Origin: a candidate division WOR-3 bacterium
Lineage (GTDB): Bacteria > Hydrothermota > Tepidihabitantia > Tepidihabitantales > Tepidihabitantaceae
Reading direction: 5' to 3'
DNA length: 64,000 bases
Assembly (NCBI GenBank): GCA_965648905.1
Contig: CBFGIT010000003.1
Span: forward strand, 93,844-157,843
The translations under genes were made by a program, and so were the position numbers. The notes beneath the pieces are model-generated. The model was not told where the DNA came from. It worked only from the letters and a program-made list of their open reading frames with translations, and made no database searches. Positions 1 to 24,810 of the stretch are shown here, piece after piece. How positions within the stretch are numbered: position 1 is the first letter of the stretch; every line of letters begins with the position of its first letter.

Positions 1-1472
1 TCTACGACCGAGACTGTACCCGAAGTGTTGTTGGCGCAGTAGACCGCGCGTTCAGTCTCATTGGCGACGAGGGCGGTTGGTTTGCCGCCGACCGGAATAC
101 GGGCAACGACTGTGTCGGCCGACCCGGCGATGACCGTGACTTGGTTGTCGGTTGCGCAGGCGGCATAGACCTTATCCATGCCGAGCGCGAGCGCGGTCGG
201 ATTGACCCCGGTGCGGACCGTCGCAAGGACACGGTTGTCTTCGCCGCTGATGACCGAAACCGTGCTGCTCCACTGGTTGGCCGAGTAGACTTTGTTCTGT
301 TCGGCGTGCCAGACGACCGCTCCGGGCCAGCATCCGAGCGGGACCGTCGAGCGCACCGCGCTGGTCGCCGCATCAATGACTGTCACGTCGCAACTGTGCC
401 AGTTGACGCAGTAGACCCGACCCGCACCTGGGTCACAGGCAATCGTCCAGGGATAGTCGCCGGCCAGAACCGTGGCGATGACCGAATCGGTTCTGGTGTC
501 AATCACCGACACACTGCCCGCACTCTGATTGGCACAGAAGACCCGGCTCGTGGTCGAATCAAAGCACAGGGCGACCGGTCGGTCCCCAACCCGCACCGTG
601 GCGAGCACGCTGTCGCCGAGCGCGTCAATCACGGTTACATCGTCGGTGTTCATGTTGGCGCAGTAGACCTTGCCGGCCGGGCCGGGAATGAGTGCCCGGG
701 GCGTGTTGCCGACCGGTAGAGTCGCGACCACGGTGTTGGTCAGCGCGTTGATGACCGTGACCGAGTTGTCGAGCGCATTGGCACAGTAGACCCGGTCGCC
801 GGCCGCGTCACAGCAGAGCAGCCGCGGGGTCAGGCCGACCGGAATCGTGGCCAGGACCGTATCGGCTCTGGCGTCCACTACCGTTACCGTGTTGTCTGTC
901 TCGTTCGCGACATATATCCGATTCAGCCTGCTGTTGCCGGCGACAAAGCAGGGTCGAGCGCCGGTCCGGACCGTGCCGAGCAAGGTGTTGGTCACGCCGT
1001 CAATCACGCTCAGACGGCCCGCAGTGTACATCGCGCAGTAGACTTTGTTCCCGGTCGCGTTGACGGCCAGAGCACAGGCCGACCAGCCGATACTGATATC
1101 CGCAAGGACCTCAAAGGTCGCGCCGTCAATCACGGTGAGCAGGTTGTCGTAGTAGTTGGCGCAGTAGACCTTGTTGGCGGCCGGGTTGTAAGCCGCGTCA
1201 ATCGTGAAGTAGCCGGAGCGCACCAAGGCGAGCTTGTCGCCCCGGATGCCGTCAAAGACGATGGTGCGCTCGCCTTCCTGGCCACTGACAAAGACCGCAT
1301 TGTTGGCGGTATTGACCGCGATTGCCCGCGGACTCAGGAGCCCGCCGAACGAGTCGGGCAACGTGATGGTTGTCTCAAGGAACTGGGCCGACCCGACCGA
1401 GACCGCAAACCACCACGCGGCCAACCGAACGGTGACCACCAAAGCTTCAGGAGCGGACCGGCACCAGGGCAT
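1..1472 (-). CDS. YVTN/YncE-family beta-propeller repeat protein, secreted (3' end outside window)
   Basis: Not in the ORF track. Manual translation from ATG 1472 gives ...SAQFLETTITLPDSFGG..., then repeated 'NKVYCAN...VTVID...VLATIPVG..P' units, open to the window edge. Start position uncertain. Confidence 0.85.
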   Translation of the reverse strand, partial: MPWCRSAPEALVVTVRLAAWWFAVSVGSAQFLETTITLPDSFGGLLSPRAIAVNTANNAVFVSGQEGERTIVFDGIRGDKLALVRSGYFTIDAAYNPAANKVYCANYYDNLLTVIDGATFEVLADISIGWSACALAVNATGNKVYCAMYTAGRLSVIDGVTNTLLGTVRTGARPCFVAGNSRLNRIYVANETDNTVTVVDARADTVLATIPVGLTPRLLCCDAAGDRVYCANALDNSVTVINALTNTVVATLPVGNTPRALIPGPAGKVYCANMNTDDVTVIDALGDSVLATVRVGDRPVALCFDSTTSRVFCANQSAGSVSVIDTRTDSVIATVLAGDYPWTIACDPGAGRVYCVNWHSCDVTVIDAATSAVRSTVPLGCWPGAVVWHAEQNKVYSANQWSSTVSVISGEDNRVLATVRTGVNPTALALGMDKVYAACATDNQVTVIAGSADTVVARIPVGGKPTALVANETERAVYCANNTSGTVSVV

Positions 1473-1480
1473 CACGCCAA

Positions 1481-1517
1481 GAGCGGGCGGGGACAGAACG
1501 CAACATCCCGCCCGCTC
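1481..1517 (-). terminator. GC-rich hairpin after the redoxin gene (terminator or stabiliser; no U-tract)
   Basis: Perfect 11-bp inverted repeat GAGCGGGCGGG (1481-1491) / CCCGCCCGCTC (1507-1517), 12 nt after the stop codon. Confidence 0.5.
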
Positions 1518-1529
1518 AGTTCATGAGTC

Positions 1530-2297
1530 CTATCTCAGGACTGAGGTTGTCACGCGACTGGTCACGGCTCCGCGTGTCAGTTCGTAGATGTACAGGCCGC
1601 TGGCAACCGGTTGGCCTGAGTCGTCAGCAAGGTCCCACTGGACCGTGTTCGCTCCGGCCGGCATTGTGCCCGTAACCAGGGTCCGTACCAGCCGGCCTGC
1701 GGCCGAGCAAACGCGCAGACTGACCGGCCCGGCCTGGGGCAGCACAAACCGCACCGCACTCGCGTGGGTAGCCGGATTGGCTCGGGCCAGCGCCAGCCCG
1801 AGCGGAACGGGTGGCTCCGGCTCAGCAACGCTGACCAGATAGGGCTCGATCCAGGACCGGATGACGTACTCGTCAAATCCTTCCATGCCACCGACCACAA
1901 TCATTGCCGTGTCAATCACGTAGTTCAGCGGAATGTAGCCGTTGATGCGATACTGGTTCCAGGCTGTGCCGTTGTCACCAAAGAATGGGAAGCTGAACTG
2001 ACGGGCGTAGTAGCGAACCGTGGTCATGTCGTCCCAAGCGTTGATTGCCATCGGCAGGAACCCCTGGTCGCGGTAGTCGTCGTACATCGCCTGGACTCGC
2101 GGTAACTCCGCGAGGCAGCCCTGTCAGCCCGAATACCAGAAGAACAGTTGAATTGTCAGACCTTGGTAGGAAGAGAGATAGTGGTAGTTGCCGGCCGTAT
2201 CCGGAATGTAGAAGTCCGGGGCCGGGTCGCCCGGGTTGGGCCCGGCAAGAAGCAAGACCGGAGAAAGGACAAGGAGTGCGAGCAGCTTGTCGCGCAT
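1530..2297 (-). CDS. Secreted AhpC/TSA/TlpA-like redoxin selenoprotein (UxxC) with FlgD-Ig/T9SS-type C-terminal domain
   Basis: ORFs 2124-2306 and 1530-2087 share a frame. The junction reads FFWYSG-TGA-QGCLAELPRVQAMYDDY, i.e. U-Q-G-C at the CxxC position. Also GDPAPDF and IPLNYVID redoxin motifs, a signal peptide, and SD AGGAGG before ATG 2297. Confidence 0.9.
2096..2114 (-). promoter_or_regulatory. Putative bacterial SECIS element
   Basis: mRNA CUCGCGG-AGUUA-CCGCGAG: perfect 7-bp stem starting 9 nt after the in-frame UGA (2124-2126), with a G in the loop. Confidence 0.75.
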
Positions 2298-2352
2298 TAC
2301 GACCACCTCCTGGGTGTCGCTTGTTACCTGACGGACAGTGCCTCGACGCCTA

Positions 2353-2380
2353 ATTGTAGCGATGCCCGCTGCTCAGTCAA
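2353..2380 (-). promoter_or_regulatory. Sigma70-like promoter of the redoxin gene
   Basis: TTGACT-16 nt-TACAAT. Confidence 0.65.
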
Positions 2381-2384
2381 TCAA

Positions 2385-3740
2385 CTAGGGCACGACGGCA
2401 AGTTTCTGTGTGATTGAACAGCCGGCGCGGTCGAGTCGAATCAGGTAGACCCCGGGCAGCATGGCCCGGAGGTCCAGTTGCAGGGATGACGCCAGAATGT
2501 CGCTCGACGACTGCCGGACGCATCGGCCTGAGGCATCGAAGATGCTGACCTTCACCGGGCCACCGGCGGGCTCGTCGAGACCGGTCATTCTTAACGTGAC
2601 AAGACCGGCTCGCGTCGGGCTGGGGCAGTGAGCCGCGCGGCCGGGTCCCGGCCTCGGCCCGAACTCGCTCGAGCCGACCGGCGGTCCCAGCCGTGCCCGG
2701 AACACCGCGCCCGACGGACCAGTCGTGGCGTAGATGAAACTGGTGTCGCCGGTCCGCACCTCGAGTAGTCGGAAGACGGTGCTTGCGCCCGGGAGCCGGC
2801 CCTCACTGGTCCAGGTAATGCCGGTATCAGCCGATGAGAAGACCTCGCCGTTCGGCGTGGTTCCAGCATAGAGGCGGCCATCGCCCGCCCAGAGCAGTGA
2901 GCGGACACCGGTTGTCGTGCCGAGACTGCCGTAACCGACTTGGTACCACGTTGTTCCTGAGTTTGAACTCGTGAACACGCGCCCGATGTTCTCCTGCGGC
3001 GCGGTCTTGGGATACGTCCCGCAGAAGATGAGCCCGGCCGGTCCCTGCACCAGGGTCGTCGCTCGGCCTGAGTCGAACATCGTGTCGGTCTCGGTCCAGG
3101 TCAGGCCGTCGTCGGTTGAGCGGTACACGAGCCGGCGTTGAGCAGCCCAGGTGCCGACATAGAGGTTACCGTCGGCAGCGGCGAGCAGGCAATACTCCGA
3201 GATTGGCGAGTACTGGGTCTGACGGACACCATTCTGCCACGTTGTACCCCGGTCGGTCGAGTAGACCGGCACGGCTGAAGAGTGAAACGAGAGCCAGTCT
3301 ATGCCCGCAACGAGCCCGAGGTCCGGCCGCTCAAGCAGCGCCCAGACCGAAGACGCGCTAACCGGAGTAGGTATCGTACCGAGCACGGACCAGGTTGCAC
3401 CATGGTCGTCTGACCGGTACACGCGGGGCTGCCATTGGCTGCCGTTCCAGGAGCTGCTGCCGGCAAAGATGGTATCACCCGCGCCGCTGACCAGTACGAA
3501 GACGCCAGGCTGGTCGCCCGGCAGGTCGGAGCGTTCCCAATTGACGAAGTCCGATGAGACAAAGACCGTGCCACTATCCAGGCCACCGGTATCAATCGTC
3601 GCCCCGGCATAGAGTCGACCGCCCTGGTCTTGGACAAGGTCGAAGACAAACTTGGCTCGGGCAAGCTGACCGGTGGCGCTCCAGTCAAGTGCCCTGGTGA
3701 CCGCCGCGAGCAGAACCATGATGGTTAGACATCTGATCAC
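2385..3740 (-). CDS. Secreted BNR/Asp-box beta-propeller protein with T9SS-type C-terminal domain
   Basis: Signal peptide; repeated SxDxGxTW Asp-boxes; C-terminal IFDASGRCV...PGVYLIRL...KLAVV. Confidence 0.85.
   Translation of the reverse strand: MIRCLTIMVLLAAVTRALDWSATGQLARAKFVFDLVQDQGGRLYAGATIDTGGLDSGTVFVSSDFVNWERSDLPGDQPGVFVLVSGAGDTIFAGSSSWNGSQWQPRVYRSDDHGATWSVLGTIPTPVSASSVWALLERPDLGLVAGIDWLSFHSSAVPVYSTDRGTTWQNGVRQTQYSPISEYCLLAAADGNLYVGTWAAQRRLVYRSTDDGLTWTETDTMFDSGRATTLVQGPAGLIFCGTYPKTAPQENIGRVFTSSNSGTTWYQVGYGSLGTTTGVRSLLWAGDGRLYAGTTPNGEVFSSADTGITWTSEGRLPGASTVFRLLEVRTGDTSFIYATTGPSGAVFRARLGPPVGSSEFGPRPGPGRAAHCPSPTRAGLVTLRMTGLDEPAGGPVKVSIFDASGRCVRQSSSDILASSLQLDLRAMLPGVYLIRLDRAGCSITQKLAVVP
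2413..2561. repeat. 149-bp direct repeat copy 1 (C-terminal sorting domain)
   Basis: Matches 3781-3929 with 6 mismatches, all synonymous. Confidence 0.9.
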
Positions 3741-3752
3741 AGGACCTCCCTA

Positions 3753-5327
3753 TCAGTTCTGAATCACGAGTTTCCCTGCCATTGAACAGCCGGCCCGGTC
3801 GAGTCGAATCAGGTAGACCCCGGGCAGCATGGCCCGGAGGTCCAGTTGCAGGGATGACGCCAGAATGTCGCTCGACGACTGCCGGACGCACCGACCCGAA
3901 GCATCAAAGATGCTGACCTTCACCGGGCCGCAAGACCACTCACCACTCATCCCGAGCACGACAAAGCCTGCCCGTGCCGGGCTGGGGCAGAAGATAGACC
4001 CGTTACCTGCCGCAGGCCTGGGCGTGAATGGACGCTCAGCCAAGCCGACGACAGCAACTTGAGGATAGTGGAAGCCCATGTCAAGCTGCTCCTGGTCCGG
4101 GACCGAGTCGGTACGCGTGGTCCACGAACGGAGCAGGGAGTCAAGGTTCAGAGGCCAGGTCCAGAGCAGCGTGTCGCCTGCGTCCACGCAGGGACTTGTG
4201 GCGGGCTGGCCTGCTCCGGTGTGGCTCAGGTAGTAGGAGCCGAGTGTGCCTGAGGCAAACAGCGGGTCGAGCGAGATGTCGCCTGGCCCGGGCGCACAGC
4301 CCGAGTAGTTGCCGCCCGGGTTGTTCCAGACGTCGTTGCAGACGAGATAAGGGAATCCATTGTAGTTGTAGACTCCGCCGCCGCCCGCGGCCGCATTCTG
4401 AACGATGATGTTGTTCTTGATGAGTGCGGAATCCTGGTAGTCCACGAAGATGCCGCCGCCGTTGGCCCAGGTTCCACCCTGGCAGGCGTTGCCGACAATC
4501 GTGTTGTTGATAATCGCCGCAGTACCTGAAACCTTGATGCCGGCGCCATAGTTCCAGAGCCCGCTCCGGTTCCGGTTGTTGACTATCAGGTTGTTGAAAA
4601 TGAGGGCCCGGGCCTGAGTCTCAACGTGAATGCCGGCGCCGTGGCCCCGGTCGCCGAGCGTGTCGAGGTTGTTCATGATGACGTTCTGGTAGATGAACGG
4701 GCTTGACCGCAAGCCGCAGTAGATCCCTGCGCCGTAGTTCCAGTACCCTTCAGCGCAGACATTGGCGGCAATCAGGTTGTAGCAGATTTCCGCGGTCGAG
4801 TTCATGTCGAGGTAGATGCCTGCGCCGTAGTTCCAGGTGTTGGTGTCGGAGCAGACGTTGGCGCTGATTTCGTTGCGGGTGATGAGCGGGCTGGCGTAGG
4901 AGCCGCACAGGATACCGCCACCGTAGTTCCGCTCGCCGTGCGCCTCGTTGCCGCAAATGCGGTTGCCGACAATCGAGGGTGAACCCGGGCAGTAGATGCC
5001 TGCGGCTGACGACGCCTTGCCGCCGCTGATTTCAAAGCCTCGAATCTCGGTGGCACGGGTCAGCCCCGAGCCCATGGTAATCACTCGGCCGTTGCCGCCG
5101 CCGCTGATGACCGTTGAGTCCGGCCCGGCCTGTGAGTACAGCTTGATGCCGTCCGTGCCCGGCCAGGTAATATTCTCTTCATAGCGACCCGGTCTGGCCA
5201 GCACCGTATCACCGGTGCGTGCCATACCTAAGCCCACGCTGATGGTTGCGGCTGAGTCGGGCACGATAATGACCCGTGCCCCGGCCCCAGCCGCCACGAT
5301 AACCAGCAACAGAACGATTCGATTCAC
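3753..5327 (-). CDS. Secreted right-handed parallel beta-helix protein with T9SS-type C-terminal domain
   Basis: Signal peptide; GDTVLARPGRYEENI; repeated N-x-I-x-x-N...YGAGIY units; SPCVDAGD; C-terminal sorting domain. Confidence 0.85.
   Translation of the reverse strand: MNRIVLLLVIVAAGAGARVIIVPDSAATISVGLGMARTGDTVLARPGRYEENITWPGTDGIKLYSQAGPDSTVISGGGNGRVITMGSGLTRATEIRGFEISGGKASSAAGIYCPGSPSIVGNRICGNEAHGERNYGGGILCGSYASPLITRNEISANVCSDTNTWNYGAGIYLDMNSTAEICYNLIAANVCAEGYWNYGAGIYCGLRSSPFIYQNVIMNNLDTLGDRGHGAGIHVETQARALIFNNLIVNNRNRSGLWNYGAGIKVSGTAAIINNTIVGNACQGGTWANGGGIFVDYQDSALIKNNIIVQNAAAGGGGVYNYNGFPYLVCNDVWNNPGGNYSGCAPGPGDISLDPLFASGTLGSYYLSHTGAGQPATSPCVDAGDTLLWTWPLNLDSLLRSWTTRTDSVPDQEQLDMGFHYPQVAVVGLAERPFTPRPAAGNGSIFCPSPARAGFVVLGMSGEWSCGPVKVSIFDASGRCVRQSSSDILASSLQLDLRAMLPGVYLIRLDRAGCSMAGKLVIQN
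3781..3929. repeat. 149-bp direct repeat copy 2
   Basis: Matches 2413-2561. Confidence 0.9.
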
Positions 5328-5372
5328 AATGCCTCCTTACAGTATTTCGAACTTCTCAGCGGCCCGGGCCGG

Positions 5373-5855
5373 TTACTGCTTGTACCCGATACGACGGAGA
5401 AAAGCCCGGCGCTCAGCCTGGTCTGATTCGGTCTCAACGCCCTTGGGTTGCTCGCCATCAATCACGCCCATGATGCCCCGGCCTTTGCCGTCATCAGCAA
5501 TGACGACCGAGACCGGATTGGCCGTGGCACAGAAAACCGAGCATACCTCCTGCAGGTTCTTGAGCTGAGGCAGGACGTTTATCGGGTACGCGCCGCGCAG
5601 GAGCAGCACGAAAACATGGCCGGCCCCGATTGAGCGGGCATTCTTCACCGCGAGCGCTTCAAGCTCAGGGTCAGTCCCCGAGTGCCGAACCAGACACGGA
5701 CCTGATGCCTCATTGAAGGCCAGGCCGAACCTGATGCCCGGCACGGTCGTGACCATCAGTTCGTGAATGTCCTCAACCGTCTTGATGAAATGGGTCTGGC
5801 CGATGATGACGTTGGCGTCGTCCGGCCGCTCGACCGCCACGCTCTCGAACTTCAC
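5373..5855 (-). CDS. Adenosine-specific kinase family protein (DUF355)
   Basis: NVIIGQTHFIKTVED, FGLAFNEASG, FCATANP, GRGIMGVIDG motifs. Confidence 0.9.
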   Translation of the reverse strand: MKFESVAVERPDDANVIIGQTHFIKTVEDIHELMVTTVPGIRFGLAFNEASGPCLVRHSGTDPELEALAVKNARSIGAGHVFVLLLRGAYPINVLPQLKNLQEVCSVFCATANPVSVVIADDGKGRGIMGVIDGEQPKGVETESDQAERRAFLRRIGYKQ

Positions 5856-5864
5856 GAGCCGCTC

Positions 5865-7301
5865 CTATCGGGCAACAAGGACCTTGCGGGTCTCGGAGTA
5901 GCCTGAGCTTTCAACCCGGTACAGGTAGGTCCCGGCCGGGACGTCCTGTCCGCCCTCGTCTTTGCCGTCCCAATGGGCTGCGAATCCAAGTCCGGGCGCA
6001 GGTGTCATGCTCAAACTGCGTACCAGCTCGCCCGAGGTATTGAAAACGTTGATTGTCGCCCGCTCGACTCTCGGATAGGAGAAGTAGAACGTGGTCGTAG
6101 TCCCGAACGGGTTGGGCGATGCCGTAAGCCCGAGCTGGCCGGGTAGCACGACGCCCGACTCACTCACGCCCACGCCCGAGACGTTGAACGTCACCATCGT
6201 GCTCTCGGGCGAGCAGACCGGCCAGGTGGTCCAGAACTCGATATCCCGGGCCAGCGAGAAGCTGTCCATTGCCCAGACATAGTAGTCCACCCTAGCCGGC
6301 GGCGTTACCGCGGGAATCGTGAAGTAGAAAGTATCACCCCGGGCCGAGTCCTCTGCGGTCGCAACCCAGGCGCCCGAGTTCACCCGGTAGCAGAGCGACT
6401 CAGCACCCCGGGCATGGTCGTCGGTGATGACCGACCAGACCGCATACGGGCCGGCAAAGGTTGTGTCCGGCCAGACCCGGGTATTGCTGAACGCGGGCGG
6501 AACCAGGTCCCAGTCCGGGACATAGCAGGACGAGAGTTGCATGAAGGTCTCGACGTTGATGAAGTCCGGGGAGGCGCCATTCTGACTCATTGCCGCGGCC
6601 ACGCCGTTTGCGCCGACAAAATGGCCGGGCACAACCCACTCGTAAATCCAGCGCCGGTCGTTCGTACCCAGGTTGTCGGTGAACACCATATTGTCACGGA
6701 TAACAAGACACGGCCAGTAGTACTCGCCCGACATCGGCACCTTGACCTTGCCCCTGGCCACAATCCGTTTGGTATGCTGTTCGACCGCCTGATACGGCAC
6801 GCCCGGGATGATTTCATACTGCCAAGAGACCGCGCTGATCCAGCCTGCGCCATAGTACATCGGCGTGGTGTAGACGTTACCGTCCGGCTGATAGTTGCCG
6901 ATGAAGCGGAAGGTCTGCTGGGTGAAGTCGATGCCGTCAATGTAGAGCCCAAACTCGTCCTTGTCCTCGTAAATCCACTGGACCGAGTTCGAGCCCAGGG
7001 TGTCGATTTCCATGATTGACGGCGCGGGTGGGTCGGTCGCCATCGACTCTGGCGCGGGCGGTCGGCCTTCGGTCGGCGAACGCAGGCCGACCCGGGCCCA
7101 CTGGCCGCCCGGATACTGGGTCAAGTTCCAGTGTTGACGCGTCGAGTCGAACGGCGTCCACATGAACAGGCTGCGGTTCTGCTGGAACCGGCCATAGGTA
7201 TCGATTTCGAGCGGGATTTCACCGCTTCCAATCATCAGATTGTGCGCCGGAAACGATGCCCCGAATCCGGCAAGGAACAGAAGGACTAAAGTCCGGTACA
7301 T
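5865..7301 (-). CDS. Secreted protein with FlgD-Ig/T9SS-type C-terminal domain
   Basis: Signal peptide; SPNPF...WDGKDEGGQDVPAGTYLYRV...KVLVAR. Confidence 0.85.
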   Translation of the reverse strand: MYRTLVLLFLAGFGASFPAHNLMIGSGEIPLEIDTYGRFQQNRSLFMWTPFDSTRQHWNLTQYPGGQWARVGLRSPTEGRPPAPESMATDPPAPSIMEIDTLGSNSVQWIYEDKDEFGLYIDGIDFTQQTFRFIGNYQPDGNVYTTPMYYGAGWISAVSWQYEIIPGVPYQAVEQHTKRIVARGKVKVPMSGEYYWPCLVIRDNMVFTDNLGTNDRRWIYEWVVPGHFVGANGVAAAMSQNGASPDFINVETFMQLSSCYVPDWDLVPPAFSNTRVWPDTTFAGPYAVWSVITDDHARGAESLCYRVNSGAWVATAEDSARGDTFYFTIPAVTPPARVDYYVWAMDSFSLARDIEFWTTWPVCSPESTMVTFNVSGVGVSESGVVLPGQLGLTASPNPFGTTTTFYFSYPRVERATINVFNTSGELVRSLSMTPAPGLGFAAHWDGKDEGGQDVPAGTYLYRVESSGYSETRKVLVAR

Positions 7302-23925: not shown

Positions 23926-24810
23926 CTAGTGGACCACGCGCAGACGCACGGTCTCGGTCTGCTCCGGGGTCCGAACCGTGCAGTAGTAGACTCCAGGCTG
24001 GTAGCCGGCAGTGTTGATGTTCAAGGACGAACCCTGAGCCTCAATCGTCTCGACCGCGCGGCCGGTCGCGTCCCGCACGGTCATGGTCATGGGGCCGGAT
24101 GCGCCGTCAAGGCTGATTGCTGTCCTGCGGTCAGCCGGGTTGGGCAGGCATCGTACCGTCGGCACGGCACGGGCTGGCCGAGCTTCGCTGATGCCACTGA
24201 CCGGCACAAGGGTGATGTCGTCGGCGGAGACCTCCGCCCACGGCGACCCTCAGCCGCCTGAGGTGCCGGCGTAAACCGACACCTTGAGCTTCTGGACAAA
24301 GCGAATCGGAACGTCGGGCAGGTTCTGGGTCAGTTCGTCGTAGACGTTTATCTGGAACCGGTTCCATTCGGTGTTGGGCACCTGAATCAGATGGCTCGTG
24401 CCGGTGGAAACCCAGTTGCAGTACGGGCTGGGGTAGTAGAATCTGGTGTCGCCCTGAAAGGCGTTGTCACGGTCGTAGTAGCCGAGAATCACCGCCGAGA
24501 CCGGCCAGCAGGTCGAGGAGCCGGCCCCGAGGTTCATTTTGGCCCAGAATGAGAAGTCGAGGTTGAGGTTCGTGACGCTGACCATCTGGTCGAGCGCGGT
24601 CGAGCCGGCCCCGAGATACTGCTGCAGGTATGCCTCATAGTCCGGGTCCGGGTGATAGCCGGTTCCCCGGTCAAAAGTGTGGGTTCCGGCCCCGACCGGG
24701 TTCTGGGTCCAGCCGACCGAAAGGTCCTGCTCAAAGTCACCGTTGACGAGCAGGTTCTGGCCCAGGGCAGACCCAAGCACAAGCAGCGCACATAATAGCA
24801 GTCTAGACAT
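23926..24810 (-). CDS. Predicted secreted selenoprotein: jelly-roll/CBM-like domain plus T9SS-type C-terminal domain
   Basis: ORFs 24250-24837 and 23926-24207 share a frame. The junction reads YAGTSGG-TGA-GSPWAEVSADDITLVPVSGISE. Signal peptide, NLLVNGDFE at the N-terminus, PNPA...DATGRAV...PGVYYC C-terminal domain, SD GGAGG before ATG 24810. Confidence 0.8.
24223..24238 (-). promoter_or_regulatory. Putative bacterial SECIS element
   Basis: mRNA GGCGGA-GGUC-UCCGCC hairpin starting 11 nt after the UGA (24250-24252). Confidence 0.78.

Follow-up and report, generated by a model that had tools for sequence, protein, structure and literature searches.

A predicted selenocysteine redoxin with a T9SS-type tail, encoded by a gene split at an in-frame TGA in candidate division WOR-3

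Within a 64,000-nucleotide stretch of a candidate division WOR-3 genome (contig CBFGIT010000003.1, positions 93,844 to 157,843 of the forward strand; the whole stretch is hereafter the window), a single TGA separates two minus-strand reading frames that together resemble a secreted redoxin. Is this TGA a stop, or is it read as selenocysteine (Sec), and in the latter case what enzyme is made and where is it sent? The TGA (2126-2124) joins a frame of 57 codons, opening with an ATG at 2297, to one of 197 codons whose TAG ends at 1530. Once it is taken as U the frame contains no further stop, so that 2297-1530 on the minus strand forms one 255-codon frame encoding 255 aa (P0001), with the active-site peptide FFWYSG-U-QG-C-LAELP. 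A Shine-Dalgarno sequence, GGAGGT, read directly from the DNA, lies 7 nt upstream of the ATG (2305-2310, minus strand), and further upstream is a sigma-70-like promoter match (TTGACT-16-TACAAT, 10/12 positions, 2353-2380, minus strand), which is a consensus match alone, with two such sites between 1400 and 2500 against 0.3 expected.

The protein collection stores P0001 as separate pieces of 57 and 185 aa and lacks the full-length protein. Its close database matches are mostly rear fragments labelled 'hypothetical' or 'T9SS/FlgD domain protein'; only seven among the 65 closest cover the active-site half and, judging by their letters, none of these derives from a TGA gene read with Sec. The first-pass annotation had proposed that the TGA unites two open reading frames at a CxxC site and that gene callers split the gene there; the continuous frame and the alignment with ResA described below bear out the former, and the stored pieces the latter. 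We conclude that this is almost certainly a single thiol-redox selenoenzyme gene wrongly split by gene callers at its Sec codon. The surroundings of the locus (1-7301, minus strand) are a run of genes encoding proteins with a signal peptide and a C-terminal tail, among them a YVTN propeller, a BNR protein, a beta-helix protein and a 478-aa protein of no named type, and the window carries two near-identical tail-coding stretches at 2401-2550 and 3781-3930.

The genome itself (G000, 99.6% complete) is equipped for Sec insertion, as the first-pass annotation would need: selA, selB and two selD genes score above their cut-offs, and a tRNA-Sec is found at 72 bits. Both selD genes (C8:87932-90890 and C4:87631-88671) are of the Sec type, each with an in-frame TGA of its own. 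One selD lies directly behind selB, which itself terminates with TGA. Because TGA ends ordinary genes in this genome (selB, and 65 of 244 tail-bearing genes), genome-wide recoding of the codon does not apply.

The named homologues of P0001 belong to candidate division WOR-3. The redoxin part was matched in 44 of the 61 genomes searched, and in 33 of 36 within the same family. For the alignment we took the best match from 30 genomes together with the genome's own paralogue, and among the 33 aligned hits the column reads TGA in 28, TGC in three and GAC in two, such that most relatives carry either TGA or Cys there. The 28 TGA rows include P0001, its 472-aa paralogue on C21 and one frameshifted copy, leaving 27 that are intact. 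In the frameshifted copy (L048, G028:C5 near 71200) the loss of one base in the SECIS region shifts the frame, through either error or recent mutation. A phylum-wide sample, in which 13 candidates were scored per genome and which thus gives a lower bound, yielded matches in at least 27 of 201 genomes from four families, three of them additional; TGA-x-x-Cys was seen in all 17 readable rows (14 directly, three after column correction), and hairpins were weaker in the most distant family.

One genome, G014 (92% complete), departs from this pattern: selA, selB and a strong tRNA-Sec match were not found in it, its redoxin has Cys and the stem has decayed. G015 and G022, which hold the remaining two Cys copies, have selB and tRNA-Sec. 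An absence of Sec machinery from the whole genus g14, drawn from selA alone, was rejected because G022 encodes selB and tRNA-Sec as well as five TGA copies of a sister family; such an absence holds for G014 only and, at 92% completeness, is not proven there. Full-length relatives without the attacking residue also exist, with DxxS (two loci and P0010), DxxC (P0009), SxxC (P0011, 84% identical) or WxxC (P0062); the loci concerned are L041, L042 and L070. The DxxS copies are arranged in tandem with a TGA copy; a perfect stem persists in one of them.

A perfect 7-bp hairpin 9 nt downstream of the TGA, also noted at first pass, is indeed there (CUCGCGG-AGUUA-CCGCGAG, 2114-2096, minus strand) and appears in both the MFE and the centroid structure. 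The bacterial SECIS consensus as given in PMC13188914 has a loop of 3-9 nt, a stem of 4-16 bp, a G at one of the two leading positions of the loop, a distance of 16-37 nt between UGA and loop, and an MFE of -7.5 or lower. The hairpin agrees on all four points, with a 5-nt loop beginning A-G-U, seven pairs, 16 nt and -17.2 kcal/mol (over 40 nt), and it is both conserved and covarying; Rfam returned no SECIS match at gathering score on this locus. Its energy is ordinary (z -1.56 for 40 nt, with 14 of 200 shuffles equal or better; z -0.8 to +0.3 for longer windows) and, being within the range of shuffles, was discarded as evidence for a SECIS. Genome-wide, a loose hairpin lies 3' of 20,659 of the 93,297 TGA triplets examined, and a scan by hairpin only was likewise set aside, its 879 candidates being mostly spurious. 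The hairpin stands above chance because of the comparison among homologues, not because of its energy.

That comparison is informative at several levels. Six of the seven pairs are kept in all 27 intact TGA homologues, five without variation and one by compensatory change (U-A in 15 rows, G-C in 12), and the outermost pair in merely seven of the 27, so that the conserved core consists of the inner six pairs and an A-G-U-U-N loop. At the codon level, CTC (Leu) at position +4 always occurs with CGA at +9, and CGC (Arg) at +4 always with CGC. The codons GCG-GAG-TTN-CCG are fixed in the 27 rows, and flanking synonymous sites are variable. On a tree built with the two covarying residues masked and the frameshifted row excluded, the Leu/CGA state requires five changes, at least three of these being forced by well-supported branches. 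The loop Leu is encoded by TTA or TTG in all 26 cases, compared with 9% usage across the tail-bearing genes of this genome. Finally, among homologues chosen for the same peptide (pattern C[LR]AELPR; 83 distinct contexts), a perfect 6-bp stem accompanies 42 of 44 TGA genes and none of 26 Cys genes. Taken together, the covariation, the same-peptide control, the tree and the Leu codons show a SECIS kept by selection independently of the protein sequence.

Machinery, homologue column and covarying hairpin thus support the original reading of the TGA as Sec, and on these comparative grounds we regard it as very nearly certain that codon 58 is decoded by SelB at the hairpin. The competing reading, that the TGA is a real stop (through a nonsense mutation, a sequencing error or the presence of two genes) or is translated as Trp or Cys, can draw on the ordinary hairpin energy, on a Trp at this column in one database homologue (P0062, at the protein level) and on an ATG at 2087 that could begin the rear piece. 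It has to contend, however, with the same TGA in four families of the phylum, a covarying stem tied to that TGA, the use of TGA to terminate ordinary genes in this genome, and a rear piece that would have neither signal peptide nor active site; we give it very little weight. A nearly identical SECIS (CGCGCGGAGTTGCCGCGC) is also found in TGA homologues from Acidobacteriota (L078-L080, L082, L083, L087, L088, L094, L104, L108, L113), which encode long proteins that have a TGA-x-x-C TlpA domain at their end and lack the tail.

What kind of enzyme does the restored frame encode? Residues 19-156 (1830-2243, minus strand) form a thioredoxin-fold domain of the ResA/TlpA/DsbE type, as indicated by Pfam AhpC-TSA (residues 22-134, E 1.8e-13) and Redoxin matches above cut-off and by structure comparison. 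An AlphaFold model of P0001 (mean pLDDT 83) has ResA as its best Foldseek matches and aligns by VIA-align with Chlorobium DsbE 3gl3 over 135 residues (Z 19.3, rmsd 1.9 Å), showing the thioredoxin fold with a TlpA-type N-terminal hairpin and insertion. The in-frame TGA (2124-2126, minus strand) places Sec58 at the first position of U-x-x-C, in line with the first Cys of ResA, and the resolving residue Cys61 (2115-2117, minus strand) is Cys in all 27 intact TGA rows. W54, C61, E64, P66 and P123 are invariant in 15 homologues and line up with the active site of ResA; P123 (1929-1931, minus strand), in an IPLNY loop that aligns with the 'LPTSF' of ResA, takes the thioredoxin cis-proline position as judged by alignment. 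The protein accordingly fits the site W-x-x-x-C-x-x-C-x-x-E-x-P, with U for the first C, plus the proline loop. It falls below the curated cut-offs for ResA (NF002854, 53.7 against 170) and TlpA (NF047696, 19.8 against 230). A peroxiredoxin (AhpC/TSA proper) was rejected because FFWYSGUQGC lacks the PxxxTxxC/U motif given for that group in PMC13188914. From fold and site, P0001 is predicted to be a ResA/TlpA-type Sec thiol-disulfide oxidoreductase.

The N-terminus resembles a short cleavable signal, judged by eye from its basic start and hydrophobic stretch (residues 1-18, 2244-2297, minus strand); A18 is nearly invariant among 15 homologues, and residues 1-17 are disordered in the model. Across 46 loci no redox neighbour is conserved within 1.5-2.5 kb. 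The neighbours that do recur, named by eye, are a ParB-like gene, an M23-like gene and an ABC binding protein; a conserved redox operon was not found. Nor was a linked CcdA/DsbD electron donor found, the sole DsbD_TM gene lying on another contig in an arsenic-resistance cluster. In that cluster (L176, C31:12232-15864) ArsR-like, arsenite methyltransferase, CcdA-like, thioredoxin-like lipoprotein and permease genes are grouped, and it holds the only DsbD_TM gene found.

Classical ResA, DsbE and TlpA enzymes are membrane-anchored and fed by DsbD or CcdA. P0001 shares the fold, the motif and the proline loop with those of Bacillus (ResA), Chlorobium (DsbE) and Bradyrhizobium (TlpA) (PDB 1st9, 4nmu, 3gl3, 1jfu), but differs in carrying Sec where they have the first Cys, in its additional tail, in scoring below the NCBIfam cut-offs and in having no linked CcdA/DsbD.

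UxxC redoxins as such are known: the catalogue of 119 prokaryotic selenoprotein families in PMC13188914 lists in its Table 1, as predicted, a 'Prx-like thiol:disulfide oxidoreductase' (PF00578) and a 'Redoxin family protein' (PF08534), both UxxC. P0001 has the same Pfam domains above cut-off, the UxxC motif and a consensus-fitting SECIS within its ORF, and differs from these families in its signal peptide and T9SS-type tail. In the main text of that paper the words T9SS, FlgD and 'secret' are absent and no T9SS cargo is mentioned. The Omp28-related selenoprotein NF045500, which is 'GOS_C' in the same Table 1 and is described there as UxxC and related to a Bacteroidota envelope protein, belongs to a different thioredoxin-like family that P0001 does not match; NF045500 may already cover tail-bearing selenoproteins. 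Two-domain proteins of the same architecture (269-280 aa), with Cys at the attacking position and uncharacterised, occur in Gracilimonas mengyeensis (WP_142455704.1), KSB1 and Marinimicrobia. The closest functional parallel is HBP35 of Porphyromonas gingivalis, which according to PMC2907840 and PMC3120885 is an active thioredoxin exported by the T9SS and anchored to A-LPS, with an unknown physiological role. By description rather than by alignment of the two proteins, HBP35 is like P0001 in having a signal peptide, a thioredoxin motif and a CTD; unlike P0001 it has CxxC, binds haem and uses a canonical Bacteroidota T9SS with the Gld/Por motor. HBP35 shows that export by the T9SS and thioredoxin activity are compatible (same sources). 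A Sec redoxin with both a signal peptide and a T9SS-type tail was not found described in the literature searched, which missed most subscription journals; as far as we could find, it is well supported that P0001 combines known chemistry with a known export tag in a new way.

The C-terminal tail (residues about 167-255, 1533-1799, minus strand) is an Ig-like domain of the FlgD_ig/T9SS-CTD type. It is all-beta in the model (pLDDT about 90) and matches Pfam FlgD_ig at residues 181-240 (E 6e-10). The T9SS sorting-domain model TIGR04183 (Por_Secre_tail) gives P0001 18.4, below its cut-off of 23, and is passed by seven of the 15 sister proteins scanned. A profile of 22 aligned tails matched FlgD best (E 1.6e-12, positions 18-78), followed by the PorU tail 6za2 (6.6e-9) and further by a streptococcal peptidase domain, PorZ 5m11 and, over nearly the whole length, the solved T9SS sorting domain 8glj_D. 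In both fold searches the redoxin domain took up the matches, and the fold match of the tail rests on sequence profiles. When a tail-derived profile was run against the genome, 244 of its 245 matches were terminal and one was internal. T9SS cargo is defined in PMC11285876 by a signal peptide and a terminal Ig beta-sandwich of 70-100 aa, an architecture that P0001 shows, with the signal peptide called by eye. According to the same paper, such tails are species-specific. The same FlgD-type domain occurs as internal repeats in the Firmicute Acetivibrio. A flagellar role for the FlgD-like tail was rejected because FliG was not found in any of seven genomes, with four controls scoring.

Candidate components of the secretion route are encoded in the same genome. 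SprA scores 471 (cut-off 200) and was matched in 57 of the 61 genomes; at least three genes are of the PorV/PorQ family (PorV_fam scores of 166, 141 and 137, cut-off 90), and two PorU-like genes reach 357 and 354, under the equivalog cut-off of 420. One PorU-like gene has a PorV-family gene as its direct downstream neighbour, and about 2.3 kb separate the C21 paralogue from another gene of the PorV family. GldM and GldN were found in none of three WOR-3 genomes, compared with both of two Bacteroidota controls, a search that diverged homologues may escape; GldK gave only partial matches under the cut-off. As a set, the T9SS-like elements of this genome comprise SprA, two PorU-like genes, several PorV/PorQ-family genes and about 244 tail proteins (C10:6292-11847, C7:80295-84690, C39:3127-7107, C21:25454-26656 and C13 near 49788). 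A WOR-3 T9SS without GldM and GldN is possibly motor-less or differently powered.

On this gene content and architecture, the best reading is that P0001 is probably exported by a T9SS-like route. The first-pass proposal, which places the protein at or beyond the outer membrane, fares well on the SprA, PorV and PorU-like genes and the terminal position of the tail, and less well on the missing GldM and GldN and on a tail that stays below the TIGR04183 cut-off.

P0001 has company in this genome. A coding-potential scan combined with the tail profile identified 17 genes that encode both a signal peptide and a terminal tail and contain an in-frame TGA with a hairpin behind it: two redoxins, seven members of a family with an unnamed domain, three BNR propellers, two Omp28-like UxxC proteins and three singletons, the last with shorter tails that the tail profile left unscored. 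Where coding was detected on both sides of a stop before a tail, that stop was TGA in 15 cases, TAG in five and TAA in two; 14 of the 15 TGA cases belong to the set, whereas six of the seven TAG and TAA cases begin a signal-bearing gene of their own and one is unclear. The TGA case at C10:45805 was left out of the set for weak upstream coding. On raw counts, the 17 genes themselves terminate with TAG (16) or TAA (1) and none with TGA, compared with TGA in 65 of 244 tail genes overall. Judged from sequence, P0001 is part of an unusually large predicted tail-tagged selenoproteome of about 17 genes.

The window holds a second such gene (23926-24810, minus strand; TGA at 24252-24250 followed by a hairpin), encoding a 294-aa protein, P0002, whose N-terminal domain is unrelated and whose tail passes TIGR04183 (34.5 against 23). 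It belongs to the unnamed family, other members of which lie at C23:28099, C14:53495, C31:24859, C30:23990, C52:9825, C1:71467 and C27 about 1925. The N-terminal domain of this family, about 190 aa long, matches nothing in Pfam or NCBIfam and conserves an SSTCWP Cys and a GxU-G motif. The family was matched in 53 of the 61 genomes. Among 38 rows read, four of which had been picked as exceptions, 34 have TGA at the column; the family's hairpin covaries as well (GGCGGAGGUCUCCGCC / GGCGAAGGUCUUCGCC, AEVSA to AKVFA).

The three tailed BNR/sortilin-type propellers (C1:78387, C10:62914 and C9:69997; L127-L129) have the motif SCGxxC ... EGxG-U-GxAELF, with TGA in all 24 loci read; their family was not seen in the selenoprotein Table 1 of PMC13188914. 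Three Omp28-like UxxC genes (C18:18745, C17:41249 and C1:118060; L130, L131, L135) comprise two with a tail and one encoding a probable lipoprotein, the latter gene sitting directly upstream of a ResA-like CxxC gene. Their column reads TGA in six and Cys in 30 of 36 rows, with close Cys paralogues in the same genomes, and the two tail-bearing sisters match NF045500 weakly (60 and 29 bits, cut-off 200). The singletons (C16:1978, C11:21813 and C8:33864; L132-L134), with signal peptide and short tail, have the motifs CU, GU-CxxxC (FG-GAP) and CxxU; the C16 gene has TGA in five of five close homologues.

How might such a protein work? With strong comparative support, SelB and Sec-tRNA would bind the hairpin 3' of UGA58 and insert Sec. 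The signal peptide, to go by its sequence, would then carry the chain over the inner membrane; by homology and gene presence, a SprA/PorV translocon would read the Ig tail and a PorU-like sortase would cut or anchor the product. Since the tail is encoded beyond the UGA, termination at that codon would leave a product without the export tag, and read-through alone can supply it. Outside, given the ResA-like site, the Sec58 selenolate would attack a disulfide or selenylsulfide, and Cys61 would resolve the mixed bond. Because no dedicated DsbD/CcdA partner is in view, the most likely role, and the weakest step of this scheme, would be that of an exchange catalyst on secreted proteins, including co-cargo bearing Sec or Cys, rather than a membrane-fed reductase; such a catalyst could act as an isomerase, or as a reductase that draws on ambient sulfide or small thiols. 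We therefore favour, as a reasonably likely explanation, a WOR-3 ResA/TlpA-type Sec oxidoreductase that is sent to the cell surface or the medium.

Two other accounts accept the Sec and part company over what follows. P0001 could be a true selenoprotein that stays in the periplasm, its tail a structural or docking Ig domain, or one on which a motor-less SprA idles, and its site fed by CcdA as in ResA and TlpA. That GldM and GldN were not found, that the tail scores below the T9SS cut-off and comes closest to FlgD, that FlgD-type domains form internal repeats in a Firmicute and that the closest folds are periplasmic reductases would all fit this account, as would the presence of one CcdA-like gene. 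It is harder to square with the location of that gene in an arsenic cluster, with a tail that sits strictly at the end of 244 diverse proteins, with sister tails that pass TIGR04183, with the retention of SprA in 57 of 61 genomes or with at least three PorV/PorQ-family genes, and we consider it unlikely. Alternatively, the protein could be exported as we propose yet have a main job other than disulfide catalysis, such as soft-metal binding, a structural selenylsulfide, or a UGA that acts as a selenium-dependent gate for surface display. Intact full-length relatives with DxxS, DxxC, SxxC or WxxC have persisted, among them two that form a tandem with a TGA copy, and in most sister genes the TGA falls in a domain other than thioredoxin (beta-sandwich-like, or a BNR or FG-GAP propeller), invariably ahead of the tail; a C-terminal tail, however, is necessarily 3' of any internal codon. 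Against this second account stand also the invariance of C61, E64, P66 and P123, which match the ResA active site, and the replacement of Sec by Cys in a genome without the machinery, and it appears less likely still.

Taken to its full extent, exported catalysis would mean that an entire selenoproteome of WOR-3 bacteria, from 17 or more genes and of at least six unrelated domain types, leaves the cell by a T9SS without the known Gld motor, that P0001 acts outside the cell to form, rearrange or mend Se-S bonds in the other secreted selenoproteins, and that selenium supply sets which of these reach the surface; we offer this only as a speculative and, on balance, doubtful proposal. Selenium supply would decide the surface proteins in such a case since every export tail is 3' of its UGA.

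At the level of the genome, WOR-3 annotation is systematically wrong for TGA genes of this kind, and the SprA/PorV/PorU set without GldM and GldN is a separate lead on T9SS-like export outside the Bacteroidota. The SECIS described here is a textbook example of an RNA structure steering a protein, with a Leu/Arg change tied to a synonymous Arg codon. If our favoured reading is true, a Sec enzyme beyond the outer membrane extends where bacteria use selenium, and it raises the question of how a U-x-x-C site is re-reduced beyond the reach of a membrane electron donor. The family itself, with UxxC, CxxC, DxxC, SxxC and DxxS members, forms a natural series for testing why Sec was chosen.
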